Below the pieces are notes generated by a model. That model did no database searches. It worked only from the letters and a program-made list of their open reading frames with translations, and was not told where the DNA came from. DNA of 64,000 nucleotides from Escherichia coli (GTDB taxonomy: Bacteria > Pseudomonadota > Gammaproteobacteria > Enterobacterales > Enterobacteriaceae), in the NCBI RefSeq assembly GCF_050920415.1, contig NZ_CP169309.1. One strand, written 5' to 3'. This document shows positions 45,198-48,928 of the stretch, one piece after another (the first letter of the stretch is position 1; each line of letters opens with the position of its first letter). The position numbers were made by a program, and so were the translations under genes.

Positions 45198-47747
45198 TTA
45201 GTTGACTGTTTTACAAGGCAAAATAATGGCACTTTCGTTGATGTTACTTTGGTTCGGGGGGGTAATTTCACAGGAGTTATTACCCCAAGTTAAATGTAGG
45301 GTACTGTTTTCTTGAATCCCGCTGAGATAAACAAAGCCATCTTCCGCCACCAGGCCCACATCTTTACCTGTCGATTTATCCGTGACATTCACCCCCAGTG
45401 GTGGGAAGCGCCCATTTTCTTGACGAATAACGCCGACGATTTGGTATCCGGTGGTGGCATTCAGTTTTGCGTAGCCGATGGCACCCTGGGTGAGCGTAGT
45501 ACGAATGACCGAGTTTTCGACATCGACACCTTCTGGCAGAACGTTATTATTCACCCGCAACATGGAGGTGGTGTAGTTCGATAATGAAGGTATCACGGCG
45601 ATGCCCAGCCCATTGGTAACAGTACGGTTAGAGTTGATTTCAACGCCAGGAATACCATCGGTATCGACCATCATGCGGGCGTTATCGCCGTAGCTATAAT
45701 CGTGAAGAGCGACACCATGACGCGTAGCTGTAATTGAACCGTACCAGCCTGCGGTAACAGAATTGTACTGATTCGGTTGCACACTACCGGTAAAGTTCAG
45801 ACGTCCCCACGGTGAATTGTGCTGATAGCTGCCACGCAGCGTTGGTTCGCCATCGCGAATATTATCGTCCGTTGCTGACGCCGAAATATTCCAGATATTG
45901 TTGCGGTCTGACGAGTCATACCAGGAAACCATTTGCGAAGTATTACTACCACCCGTGCGCTGCATGCTGTAGGAAAGGTTGCGACTTTGCTGTAACGGCA
46001 GAGAGAATGAGAAGTAATACTGATTTTCTTCGTCATCATCCCAGCGAATGCGACTCACTGCCAGCGATGCGGAAATGCCCTTGAAATCACCAATATCAAA
46101 GTTTTTGCTTACTGATATCGAGTAATTAGTATTGGCAGGGCTGTCCCAATAAGTATTGCGTGTAACGTTGACATAAGAGTTTAATTCCAGCGATTCAAAG
46201 TACTGGTTCAGGGAAATAACATAACTTTCTTTTTCGTTATCGATTGACTCATCACCATTACGTGAGTTGAGGTACTCATTCATTGACACGTAATCTTTAT
46301 CAGAGAAGCGATAACCCGCGAAGGTAATCTGGCTGCCCGTTGATTCGAAATGTTTTGCATAGTTAAACCGATAGCTGTAACCACGCAAATTGTCGCTATT
46401 TTGTTGCTGTAAAGAGGCATCAGCTCCGGTGACATCGAAAGAAAGCGAACCAAATTGATTGAGGTTAAAACCGATGCCAGTGGTGATCGCCTGGTAATCA
46501 TCTGCAGTGAACATGCCGCCGCCATAGAGCGACACATTATTCAGCCAGCCCCAGGAGGCTTCAGCCGTCCAGAAAAAGGGGTTATTAATATCGTTATGTC
46601 CGACTGATGTTGGTTTTCCCAGCGATGTTTTGTAGCGTACTTGCCCTTTACGGGTTAAATAGGGGATGGAAGCGGAACCGACCTGAAAGGTATTGGTACG
46701 GCCATCTTCTTCTTCAACAGTGACATCCAGTTGACCCTGAAACGATTGACCCAAATCAGTAATAGTAAAAGGGCCTGGCGCGACTGTGGTTTGATAAAGT
46801 ACACGACCATTTTGCGCTACTGTCACTTTGGCGTTGGTCTGCGCGATGCCGGTAATTTGTGGCGCATAACCCTGTAAATCTGGCGGCAACATGCTTTCAT
46901 CACTTTCCAGTGATGCGCCAGTAAAATGGAAGGTATCGTAAAGATTGGAACTCAGGTCGTATTGTCCCATGGTGAACTTAGATGACCATGAGGGAATAGG
47001 GCGAAAGAGATAAGTTCGCGCAAATTCACCGCTATGGCTGACGGAACGACCATCAGCAAAATTCTGATTATATTGGTAATCGCTACGTAAGCGCCATGCG
47101 CCGAGGTTAAAGCCTAACGTACCATAGGAGCTGACATTTTGGGTACTGTCTCCCTGCTGTGGAGAATACTGGCTAGCGTATATGTTGTAATCAAGGATAA
47201 ATCCGGCGATACCGTCATCCCAAAATTCGGGGGGCGTCCAGTTTGTTGCCTGGTATTTTAACCATGCTTGGGGAATGCTAAGCGATAATATCATTGTGGC
47301 TTTATCAAGCCGTATCGTTAATTCCTGACGTTGACTTAAATCTAAACATTCGCTGCCAGCTATGGTTTGCAATGATTCAATAAAGTCCGTATTAAGGCCG
47401 AAATTAGTCAGGTTTTCTTTGGTTAAGCAGAGTAACGAACCACTTTCATTATCGGCTTTTGCCCACTCCAGCATTAACGCTTGTGGTAACATGTTTTTGT
47501 TTATTTGCACACGAACGAGGTATTTTGCAGGGGTGATATAGCCTTTTTTTTCAAATCGCGAGAGATCAATGTTCGCACGATCTTCAACGTCAATCATATC
47601 AGCATTGAATTCTACGGCGCGGACTGGTAAAACGAAGAGTAGCGAAAACACAACACCAGACAGGGCATTTTTAATTGCGTAGGATAATTTATCCCCGGTA
47701 AACGTGTTTTTATTGTTCATAAAAATCCATTTCAAAAAAGACCCCAA
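45198..47747 (-). CDS. yqiG: outer membrane fimbrial usher YqiG (apparently intact)
   Basis: 849 aa uninterrupted ORF of usher size; from memory the K-12 copy is IS2-disrupted. Confidence 0.85.
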   Translation of the reverse strand: MGSFLKWIFMNNKNTFTGDKLSYAIKNALSGVVFSLLFVLPVRAVEFNADMIDVEDRANIDLSRFEKKGYITPAKYLVRVQINKNMLPQALMLEWAKADNESGSLLCLTKENLTNFGLNTDFIESLQTIAGSECLDLSQRQELTIRLDKATMILSLSIPQAWLKYQATNWTPPEFWDDGIAGFILDYNIYASQYSPQQGDSTQNVSSYGTLGFNLGAWRLRSDYQYNQNFADGRSVSHSGEFARTYLFRPIPSWSSKFTMGQYDLSSNLYDTFHFTGASLESDESMLPPDLQGYAPQITGIAQTNAKVTVAQNGRVLYQTTVAPGPFTITDLGQSFQGQLDVTVEEEDGRTNTFQVGSASIPYLTRKGQVRYKTSLGKPTSVGHNDINNPFFWTAEASWGWLNNVSLYGGGMFTADDYQAITTGIGFNLNQFGSLSFDVTGADASLQQQNSDNLRGYSYRFNYAKHFESTGSQITFAGYRFSDKDYVSMNEYLNSRNGDESIDNEKESYVISLNQYFESLELNSYVNVTRNTYWDSPANTNYSISVSKNFDIGDFKGISASLAVSRIRWDDDEENQYYFSFSLPLQQSRNLSYSMQRTGGSNTSQMVSWYDSSDRNNIWNISASATDDNIRDGEPTLRGSYQHNSPWGRLNFTGSVQPNQYNSVTAGWYGSITATRHGVALHDYSYGDNARMMVDTDGIPGVEINSNRTVTNGLGIAVIPSLSNYTTSMLRVNNNVLPEGVDVENSVIRTTLTQGAIGYAKLNATTGYQIVGVIRQENGRFPPLGVNVTDKSTGKDVGLVAEDGFVYLSGIQENSTLHLTWGNNSCEITPPNQSNINESAIILPCKTVN

Positions 47748-47806
47748 GGTGCTGATGAAATTTCATCAGTTTTACCGCCTGGTGTTGTGTAGGTATTAAT
47801 TGCCGA

Positions 47807-48370
47807 TTACTTGTAGTCGAGTACGTAATTAGCCTGTGCCTGCACATTACCCGGGGTCGCGGTGCGTCCCAGAGATTCCATACGGGCTTTAAAGTTCAAC
47901 TCCTGGTAGGAATTAGTTGTCGGGAAGTCGATGGTGATGGGGGTACCAAGAGTCACGTTGGTATTGTCTGATTTCACCAGACGTACTCCTACATCAGTTG
48001 CGCCGCCGATGTTACCTTCCTGTGTGTTTTTAAGCAGGTTGGAGTCGGTAGTGTCAACGCTGGCAGAGCTAAAGGTGATTTTGACTTTATCAACAGTGTT
48101 AGTGCCGTCAGATAAAATACAATCCTGCAAATGAATGGTGACATCTACAGGCAGAGATTTCTGTCCGCTTTTTAATACAGTATCAGCAACCTCACCGAGA
48201 TTTATTGTTTGATCTTCATCACCAGGAGCAATAGAGCAAGGTGCATCGATAACTTCACCCTTAAACGTTATTTTACCGGAACCCTGATTAGGGTCATCAG
48301 CAAGCGCGTTAAATGCAACGCCAGATAATAGTGTGGTTGCGAATATAGATAATAATGTTTTTTTTAACAT
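47807..48370 (-). CDS. ygiL: fimbrial major subunit-like protein YgiL
   Basis: 187 aa with signal peptide and C-terminal beta-strand (..ANYVLDYK) typical of pilins. Confidence 0.8.
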   Translation of the reverse strand: MLKKTLLSIFATTLLSGVAFNALADDPNQGSGKITFKGEVIDAPCSIAPGDEDQTINLGEVADTVLKSGQKSLPVDVTIHLQDCILSDGTNTVDKVKITFSSASVDTTDSNLLKNTQEGNIGGATDVGVRLVKSDNTNVTLGTPITIDFPTTNSYQELNFKARMESLGRTATPGNVQAQANYVLDYK

Positions 48371-48928
48371 GACTTAATCCTTTATAAATAGGAAGAGCTA
48401 TGGATGAGGAAAATATAGGTTTGAATCTAATATTAATTCCGCTATGGACATTACCATAATCAAAGATAATTTGGCTTGTTATTAATATTTAATACTGATT
48501 AAGTAAAACTTAAAATATACATTTTAGTTATATATTTTGATGCATATATCTAGATATTTGTTGAATTTCGTTATGTATGATACATTTTTTGTATGGGTCA
48601 CGGTGAAAGAATGACCACTTATTGACAAAAGTTTACTTCTGATATTGTAAGGTGGTAGAGTATAATTATTATAACGAGTAGGAACGTAATAATCACGAAG
48701 ATATAATATATATCTGGTGGTGCTTATTAATATTAATTAGTGATGTTCCATCCGGGAATAGGATGCATTAATAGTCTTGGTTGTTTCTTTTTTAATCGAG
48801 TATGGTGTATAATACAACACTTGCTATGATCGAAATCATATACTTGATCCACAATTATGCGAGTATATGAATATATTCAACGATGGATATGTGAAATTTT
48901 AATGCTAAATGTTTAGTAATGTTAAATT
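48371..48928. promoter_or_regulatory. ~560 bp strongly AT-rich upstream region of the fimbrial operon (probable nucleoid-protein-silenced promoter region)
   Basis: Long runs of A/T (tatatatt, ttaatattaatta); base composition contrasts sharply with flanking genes. Confidence 0.5.

Follow-up and report, generated by a model that had tools for sequence, protein, structure and literature searches.

Results

Gene content of the locus

We analyzed 64,000 nucleotides (nt) of Escherichia coli DNA (RefSeq assembly GCF_050920415.1, contig NZ_CP169309.1; the window), in which the minus strand from 43402 to 48370 carries a whole chaperone-usher fimbrial operon. An open reading frame (ORF) scan placed four tightly packed minus-strand ORFs between ribB and the small gene yqiD. 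They encode a major fimbrial subunit of the YgiL/YqiL pilin type (47807–48370; 187 amino acids [aa]), an outer-membrane usher (45198–47720; 840 aa), a PapD-like periplasmic chaperone (44442–45182; 246 aa, with an upstream ATG that extends the ORF to 45191), and a predicted two-domain tip adhesin (43402–44445; 347 aa). No adaptor, terminator, or regulator genes are encoded by the operon.

The first-pass annotation of this DNA described an intact yqi-related chaperone-usher operon at 45198–48928. The gene set, domains, and intactness of the genes bore out this description. The coordinates covered only the usher gene, pilin gene, and upstream spacer, which is half of the unit; the chaperone gene (44442–45182) and adhesin gene (43402–44445) were omitted.

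A bidirectional intrinsic terminator (43370–43397; AAAACGCCGGGATATTCCCGGCGTTTTT) is common to the adhesin gene (minus strand) and the convergent ribB (plus strand). Its folding energies were -24.2 and -21.6 kcal/mol on the two strands (z = -6.2 and -5.9), and none of 200 shuffles folded as well. A conserved hairpin in the spacer between the major subunit and usher genes (47752–47769, minus strand; CTGATGAAATTTCATCAG) is a candidate attenuator or mRNA-stabilizing element. An AT-rich intergenic region (48371–48943) separates the major subunit gene from the divergent yqiD (48944–49114, plus strand). The latter is a backbone gene outside the operon that encodes a small membrane protein with 65% aa identity to K-12 YqiD, and its annotated location in N96 and LF82 is the same.

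Integrity of the four genes

The usher ORF was uninterrupted, as had been stated in the first-pass annotation. Its length of 849 aa applies to the maximal ORF (45198–47747), which begins at a TTG; the likely start is the ATG at 47720, giving 840 aa. The TTG lies just past the hairpin and has no Shine-Dalgarno sequence. We assigned the start to the ATG because its context (GAAATGGATTTTTATGAAC) was kept in the aligned E. coli and E. fergusonii loci, with one base differing in Pluralibacter, and because RefSeq annotates an usher of 840 aa in the 99.9–100% identical loci of N96 and MFDS1022581. The ushers of LF82, E. fergusonii, and Pluralibacter are also 840 aa each. Alignment to four homologs with tblastn covered residues 1–839/840 in one piece, and no frameshift was found.

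The domains expected of the family were present. PapC_N, Usher, and PapC_C are recorded on the nucleotide-identical usher of contig L062 (GCA_018953615.1), a contig that matches the window at 100% over the whole stretch between yqiJ and zupT, these genes included. The best NCBIfam matches of the usher were of the StdB/Stf/Ste type, end to end and all below the equivalog cut-offs, and those of the chaperone were StdC, SteC, and StfD. PapD_N and PapD_C are recorded on an identical chaperone product. Its DRTR and RLKLFWRP motifs, which were read from the sequence, are presumably the subunit-anchoring motifs of PapD Arg8 and Lys112. The major subunit matched NF007276 with 342.5 bits against a cut-off of 189, and PF00419 is recorded on an identical product; it has a Cys45–Cys84 pair and a penultimate tyrosine (...LDYK). 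The adhesin also ends with a penultimate tyrosine (...KINYN). Signal peptides were read from the sequences of all four products. From Pluralibacter to E. coli, the products keep their lengths and motifs.

The ratios of nonsynonymous to synonymous substitution (dN/dS), computed across synonymous divergence of 0.2–0.67, were 0.05–0.11 for the major subunit, 0.07–0.08 for the usher, 0.07–0.09 for the chaperone, and 0.14 for the adhesin. These values indicate long-term purifying selection on all four proteins. Since dN/dS was 0.05–0.14 throughout, the four genes are probably functional.

Relationship to the operon of K-12

The first-pass annotation regarded the operon as the uninterrupted form of the K-12 operon. 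This was refuted by a different chromosomal site and by low protein identity. In K-12, ygiL-yqiG::IS2-yqiH-yqiI lies between ubiK and glgS, and its usher gene yqiG is indeed split by the insertion sequence IS2. The ubiK-glgS spacer in the window is 34 bp, and the K-12 site is thus empty. The operon of the window is between ribB and yqiD-zupT, on the opposite side of ribB-ubiK from the K-12 operon. Protein identities to K-12 were 61% for the major subunit, 56% for the usher (with YqiG reconstructed), 47% for the chaperone, and 35% for the adhesin, while the flanking backbone DNA was 93–96% identical. The two homologous four-gene operons have the same orientation and occupy alternative sites flanking the 1.3-kb ribB-ubiK segment (window 41787–49114; K-12 L001 3382–11940).

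E. coli fimbriae are typed by usher phylogeny and locus position (Wurpel et al. 2013, PMC3559732). In that scheme, 'Yqi' is common in phylogroup B2 and 'Yqi-like' occurs in phylogroups A, B1, D, and E; the two types are closely related and mutually exclusive (PMC3559732). The position between ribB and yqiD-zupT and the usher aa identity of 93% identify the operon of the window, at the level of sequence comparison, as the 'Yqi' type (extraintestinal pathogenic E. coli [ExPEC] adhesin I, EA/I, or 'Ygi') and not the 'Yqi-like' type of K-12. The usher was grouped by pairwise identity: it was 93% identical in aa and 89–90% in nt to B2 and E. fergusonii Yqi ushers, and 56% identical in aa to K-12 YqiG. 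Among the four proteins, aa identity to the B2/ExPEC alleles was 96–97% for the pilin, 93–94% for the usher, 87–89% for the chaperone, and 60–63% for the adhesin.

The ribB-side operon was read directly in LF82 and ST131, and was traced through the shared upstream region in CFT073 and Nissle 1917. E. fergusonii, E. albertii, and [Enterobacter] lignolyticus/Pluralibacter carry their operons at this position as well. Of 5426 complete E. coli genomes, the ribB-side operon was found in 992 and the K-12 type in 3362; going by these two totals, up to ~1070 may have neither. Intact K-12-type operons exist elsewhere, with 94–100% nt identity to K-12.

The tip adhesin

Pfam and NCBIfam returned no family for the adhesin. 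Its identity was therefore taken from sequence matches to the Protein Data Bank (PDB) and from its fold. A signal peptide (residues 1–21) is followed by a receptor-binding domain (~22–211) and a pilin domain (~212–347). Residues 22–211 matched the receptor-binding domains of PDB 9rwu and 9rwv (E = 1e-65), as well as 9rx0, 9rww, and 9rwe, the last of which is the K-12-type (YqiI) domain. Receptor-binding domains of Yqi-family adhesins have been solved and deposited under these five accessions; a literature search found no paper on 9rwu, 9rwv, 9rwe, 9rx0, or 9rww. The AlphaFold2 model had a mean predicted local distance difference test score (pLDDT) of 86.8 and a predicted template modeling score (pTM) of 0.80. 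In Foldseek, the model matched FimH, CupB6, LpfD, and PapG over the full length, and pilin domains, including that of PapG, over the C-terminal half. By these sequence and fold matches, the fourth protein is identified as a two-domain tip adhesin.

The receptor-binding domain of the adhesin was 54–57% identical to the ExPEC, E. albertii, and ExPEC-like E. fergusonii alleles, with 65–69% identity in the pilin domain. The B2-type alleles compared share 76–98% identity among themselves in the receptor-binding domain. The adhesin was otherwise closest to that of the E. fergusonii type strain, ATCC 35469 (86.7% in aa and 86% in nt; ~90% in the receptor-binding domain). The ExPEC-like class, 60% identical in aa and 66% in nt to the window, is present in a different strain of E. 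fergusonii. A third class, 66% identical and 350 aa long, is present in E. whittamii, including an E. whittamii-like scaffold. The source search among GTDB species representatives returned E. whittamii as the best match (66%) and missed the E. coli, E. fergusonii, and E. albertii representatives; the link to E. fergusonii was found through cluster membership. Judging from sequence, the adhesin belongs to a divergent, uncharacterized class shared with E. fergusonii, and the rest of the operon appears ordinary. Since the classes are shared with and split within E. fergusonii, with a further one in E. whittamii, the adhesin classes cut across species.

The adhesin gene is a mosaic relative to that of ATCC 35469 (L060 7001–8044). 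Synonymous divergence (dS) was 0.19 in the receptor-binding part and ~2.1 in the pilin part. The dS of ribB against the same strain was 0.25, which is close to the value of the receptor-binding part. The contrast between the two halves points to a recombination breakpoint near the domain boundary.

Adhesin relatives with 31–35% identity were also noted on short contigs in Gram-positive metagenome-assembled genome bins (Collinsella sp. and Bacillota bacterium; L040–L042, L057). This identity is about the level of K-12 YqiI (35%). The relatives are most likely enterobacterial contamination.

Distribution of the allele

The allele was found in two of the 5426 complete genomes. Identities were bimodal: two genomes at 99.9–100%, ~990 at 85–87%, and none between. 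For the neighboring 20 kb, too, just two complete genomes reach 99% identity, which places the strain in a lineage thinly represented among finished genomes. The adhesin class is not exceedingly rare in the wider protein collection: one member occurs on at least 112 contigs, and every one checked had the same intact four-gene context. Five copies of the window allele are collinear. Usher nt identity was ~89.5% to B2-type alleles and 90–91% to E. fergusonii alleles, which corresponds to between-species divergence.

The upstream region and the intercistronic hairpin

The upstream region is extremely AT-rich, which agrees with the first-pass annotation. The guanine-plus-cytosine (GC) content of 48371–48943 is 27.7%, against 51% for the window, making it the lowest-GC 573-bp stretch (rank 1 of 1269 windows). 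TpA steps account for 14.3%, against 4.6% in the window.

An alignment of nine alleles resolved a conserved distal block (48822–48943), a hypervariable center, and conserved proximal blocks. The distal block (~120 bp) is backbone sequence beside the divergent yqiD and is partly common to K-12. It is conserved in all nine alleles, and K-12 has no operon there; the block probably serves yqiD. The center is ~79–84% identical to B2-type alleles. The hypervariable part corresponds to 48524–48821 in the window and its counterparts in L004, L006, L018, and L019; at the megablast level, the match of ST131 genomes to the LF82 spacer is limited to its distal 45%. A proximal 27-bp block (48497–48523; AATGTATATTTTAAGTTTTACTTAATC) is also conserved upstream of K-12 ygiL (L001 ~5261–5287), where it adjoins a sigma-70 promoter, TCGATA-17-TATAAA, defined by systematic evolution of ligands by exponential enrichment (SELEX; PMC3946193). 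The block is shared though the coding regions diverged by ~40–65% in protein. We consider it a candidate for a shared regulator or promoter element.

The first-pass annotation also described the promoter as possibly switchable, and the search for switch elements returned neither an invertible nor a Pap-type signature. Perfect inverted repeats of 9–10 bp lie 239–288 bp apart, but they consist of A and T only, the longest is 10 nt, and their count and length are at chance level: in 500 dinucleotide shuffles, 168–172 reached the observed count or length. Among 993 E. coli genomes with a related upstream region, no inverted copy was found, and each gave one collinear match. No ORF for a recombinase or a papI/papB-like gene lies between ribB and zupT; a trans-acting recombinase may be encoded elsewhere in the genome, outside the 64-kb window. 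Tandem Repeats Finder detected no tandem repeats or long homopolymers in the upstream region, and a slipped-strand switch was rejected. GATC occurs just twice, at 48828 and 48846, and both sites fall within the backbone block beside yqiD. A Pap-like Dam/Lrp switch was rejected on their spacing (18 bp instead of ~100 bp) and on the lack of papI/papB-like regulators. We infer that the operon has no cis-encoded on/off switch. A structured RNA or riboswitch in 48371–48943 was also considered and rejected, as Rfam gave no match at E ≤ 1; the only real match nearby was the FMN (flavin mononucleotide) riboswitch of ribB.

The hairpin at 47752–47769 was present in all aligned Yqi loci, with one compensatory C:G to U:A change between the window and the LF82, ST131, TUM1226, and E. 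fergusonii copies. The corresponding position in K-12 is occupied by a different hairpin.

Flanking genes and other features

Downstream of the operon are ribB (42695–43348, plus strand) with its FMN riboswitch (42443–42591, Rfam match), ubiK (42022–42321, minus strand), and glgS (41787–41987, plus strand). Upstream, zupT (49176–49949, minus strand) is followed by ygiD and ygiC. No integrase, tRNA, or boundary direct repeats were found at the operon edges, and no repeats or remnants at the K-12/window breakpoints.

Genomes with the ribB-side operon differ beyond zupT. The window (50880–50918), N96, and TUM1226 have ygiD directly followed by ygiC, as in K-12. In the B2-type strains examined (LF82, CU37RT-2, 18KM2445, SC477, and ST131), dsbI, a dsbA/dsbL-like gene, and an aryl-sulfate sulfotransferase gene (assT) are beside ygiD (L004 11585–13902), and in ST131 ygiC comes after these genes.

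The second-lowest GC stretch of the window (60100–60700, ~33%) coincides with a small hydrophobic ORF (60286–60618, 110 aa). Its neighbors are, to judge by their translations, a putative mdaB-like gene and a putative qseC-like gene. Two copies of the SIB antitoxin RNA are located at 38450–38599 and 38826–38976, between hldE and yqiK. K-12 also has two (sibD and sibE), the E. fergusonii and E. albertii loci have three ibs copies, and ibs toxin ORFs accompany the SIB RNA copies in related loci.

Discussion

We consider it likely that 43402–48370 is a Yqi-type operon that is complete and probably functional, occupies the position ancestral in Escherichia, and encodes a divergent adhesin, and that it is silenced without a cis switch. 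The related yqi cluster makes fimbriae when cloned and mediates adhesion and chicken lung colonization (PMC2771359). The CFT073 cluster binds terminal beta-N-acetylglucosamine (GlcNAc), Lewis A, and blood group B glycans (PMC8545135).

The chaperone-usher pathway is well established, and it provides the basis for the assembly steps proposed here. The four products would be exported through Sec. The PapD-like chaperone would then cap the subunits by donor-strand complementation, and the usher would recruit the two-domain tip adhesin first and then, by donor-strand exchange, polymerize the one major pilin underneath. The transcript presumably begins within the AT-rich DNA that precedes the major subunit gene; its synthesis would be held low by nucleoid-protein (H-NS-type) silencing, which would be relieved in trans. 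The ratio of pilin to usher mRNA is probably increased by the conserved hairpin that follows the major subunit gene. To judge by other fimbrial operons, this hairpin may attenuate read-through or stabilize the pilin mRNA.

Silencing of the upstream region by nucleoid proteins of the H-NS type, as expected in the first-pass annotation, is plausible on indirect evidence, and with relief in trans it is the most likely mode of regulation. The region has the composition of an H-NS-silenced locus, being AT-rich, TpA-rich, and far below the GC content of the window. The K-12 yqiC-ygiL spacer contains a sigma-70 promoter flagged as an H-NS site (PMC3946193). In CFT073, overproduction of the PapB-family regulator TosR raises yqiL (c3791) by log2 5.3, and TosR is predicted to antagonize H-NS/Lrp (PMC5956150). 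The reading of silencing is thus based on the AT-rich composition, the H-NS mark on the K-12 paralog, and the effect of TosR in CFT073.

Several observations weigh against this model of the operon. Two concern signs of H-NS binding that had been proposed as checks in the first-pass annotation: the high-affinity H-NS 10-mer TCGATAAATT had no match in the upstream region with up to two mismatches, and the AA/TT helical periodicity examined for curvature was not significant (63 of 500 shuffles reached the value). Neither a nucleation motif nor curvature is required for H-NS binding. Matches to consensus promoters and terminators were no more common than in shuffles, and no promoter was therefore located. 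The 101-nt context of the hairpin folded no better than shuffles (z = -0.3). In MFDS1022581, the only complete genome with a 100% identical allele, IS2 is inserted at approximately codon 32 of the adhesin gene. In the E. whittamii-like metagenome scaffold (L010 3725–6878), the usher is split (84 + 698 aa) and the chaperone is shortened (204 aa); in this lineage, the locus is decaying. The operon is consequently dispensable and in decay in some lineages.

The IS2 copy of MFDS1022581 (L003 5052–6380) corresponds to ~44344–44350 of the window, and is the same element that splits the usher gene of the paralogous K-12 operon. AT-rich fimbrial operons of this sort may be repeatedly struck by IS2.

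We weighed four other explanations. That the operon is K-12 ygiL-yqiGHI in its original, IS2-free state is hardly conceivable. The two operons belong to the same broad family, have the same gene order and the 27-bp upstream block in common, the yqiG of K-12 is truly split, and the major subunit passes an NCBIfam equivalog built around YgiL. However, the chromosomal sites differ and that of K-12 is empty in the window, proteins of 61/56/47/35% identity lie within flanking DNA of 93–96%, the literature separates the two types (PMC3559732), and intact operons of the K-12 type have been found elsewhere. We also regard as very unlikely that the AT-rich region is a cis phase-variation switch, either invertible as in fim or Dam/Lrp-dependent as in pap. 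Its length (573 bp) and very high AT content are as at fimS and pap, and it does contain spaced inverted repeats and two GATC sites. Nevertheless, the repeats are A/T only and at chance level, the GATC sites are too close together and in the backbone block, no recombinase, papI, or papB homolog is in or beside the operon, all 993 genomes and five copies of the allele are collinear, and the region offers neither tandem repeats nor long homopolymers for slippage.

The two remaining explanations concern the history of the locus. A recently acquired genomic island, with low GC as a mark of foreign DNA, would account for the GC content (31–45% in the adhesin gene and 27.7% in the upstream region, compared with 51% for the window), the patchy presence across E. 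coli, and the between-species level of divergence from other alleles. It is, however, improbable, as the boundaries have no integrase, tRNA, or direct repeats, and E. coli B2, E. fergusonii, E. albertii, and Pluralibacter all carry the operon in one position and one orientation. These same features suggest long residence of the locus, with loss or replacement in most E. coli, and exchange of its alleles by homologous recombination. The operon may instead be a cryptic relic that is intact by chance, never expressed, and heading for decay. Consistent with this, expression of the related ExPEC operon in vitro is poor, and its reads often fail to reach the cut-off (PMC5956150), ~80% of E. coli genomes have no operon at the ribB-side site, and the gene damage described above affects the adhesin in MFDS1022581 and the usher and chaperone in a related contig. 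In contrast, dN/dS is low over a wide range of synonymous divergence, lengths and motifs are kept from Pluralibacter to E. coli, the allele is intact on more than 100 contigs, and the sister ExPEC allele contributes to colonization in vivo (PMC2771359). We consider a relic unlikely, and favor the resident, probably functional operon.

What is of moderate interest in this operon is the divergent adhesin. Since its receptor-binding domain is 54–57% identical to ExPEC alleles and ~90% identical to the E. fergusonii class, this degree of divergence suggests that it probably binds a receptor different from that of the CFT073 adhesin, whose ligands are beta-GlcNAc and fucosylated glycans. There may be at least three classes: an ExPEC-like one (349–351 aa), one like that of the window and of the E. 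fergusonii type strain (347 aa), and one like that of E. whittamii (350 aa). Exchange of receptor-binding domains may take place without exchange of the pilin domains. We tentatively raise the possibility, although we hold it to be rather less than probable, of a trans-species polymorphism in which at least three deep adhesin classes are shared or exchanged among E. coli, E. fergusonii, and E. whittamii, with the class of the window recognizing a host receptor other than that of CFT073. If this is the case, a minor E. coli lineage gains a distinct tissue or host tropism through its adhesin class. The same machinery carrying a receptor-binding domain with ~55% identity to ExPEC and ~90% to E. 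fergusonii represents a natural experiment on receptor and host range. Beyond the adhesin class, this is a standard chaperone-usher system that poses no new mechanistic question.

Comparison with known systems

Avian and human extraintestinal E. coli use Yqi/EA-I fimbriae as a colonization factor, the glycan profile of which has been mapped. The operon of the window resembles the ExPEC Yqi/EA/I/'Ygi' operon of B2 strains (CFT073 c3791–c3794, UTI89, avian pathogenic E. coli [APEC] IMT5155, LF82, and Nissle 1917) in its position between ribB and yqiD-zupT, its four genes in the same order, its product lengths (187, 840, and 246 aa, with an adhesin of 347 aa in the window and 349 aa in ExPEC), and an upstream region of ~28% GC with proximal and distal blocks in common. 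It differs in the adhesin, which is 60–63% identical overall, 54–57% in the receptor-binding domain, and 66–69% in the pilin domain. It also lacks dsbI-dsbL-assT beside ygiD, which are present in LF82, CU37RT-2, 18KM2445, SC477, and ST131. The Yqi operon of E. fergusonii ATCC 35469 shares the position, gene order, and 347-aa adhesin class. However, its usher (90% in nt) and chaperone (88%) are no closer than those of E. coli B2 alleles, and only 155 bp of the 573-bp upstream region can be aligned.

The K-12 Yqi-like operon shares the family, gene order, 27-bp upstream block, and homologous receptor-binding domains (9rwe), and is set apart by its ubiK/glgS site, IS2-interrupted usher, and 61/56/47/35% protein identity. 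The 'yqi' gene names cover two different operons flanking ribB-ubiK, classed as mutually exclusive, and to carry knowledge of K-12, such as the IS2 disruption, over to the ribB-side locus is a mistake.

Under the scheme of Nuccio and Baumler, we assign Yqi ushers to the clade that has P (Pap) fimbriae as its archetype. The operon resembles pap in its usher and chaperone architecture, its predicted two-domain tip adhesin, the model of which matches PapG, and its allelic adhesin classes, which may differ in receptor as do PapG I–III. Unlike pap, it has no papI/papB, no PapH-, K-, E-, or F-type subunits, and no Dam/Lrp GATC pair, and it lies in the backbone instead of a pathogenicity island. It likewise differs from type 1 fimbriae and fimS in having no inverted repeats above chance, no nearby fimB/fimE-like recombinase, and no inverted copies among the 993 genomes. 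It shares with type 1 fimbriae a chaperone-usher operon, a two-domain adhesin, and an AT-rich regulatory region.

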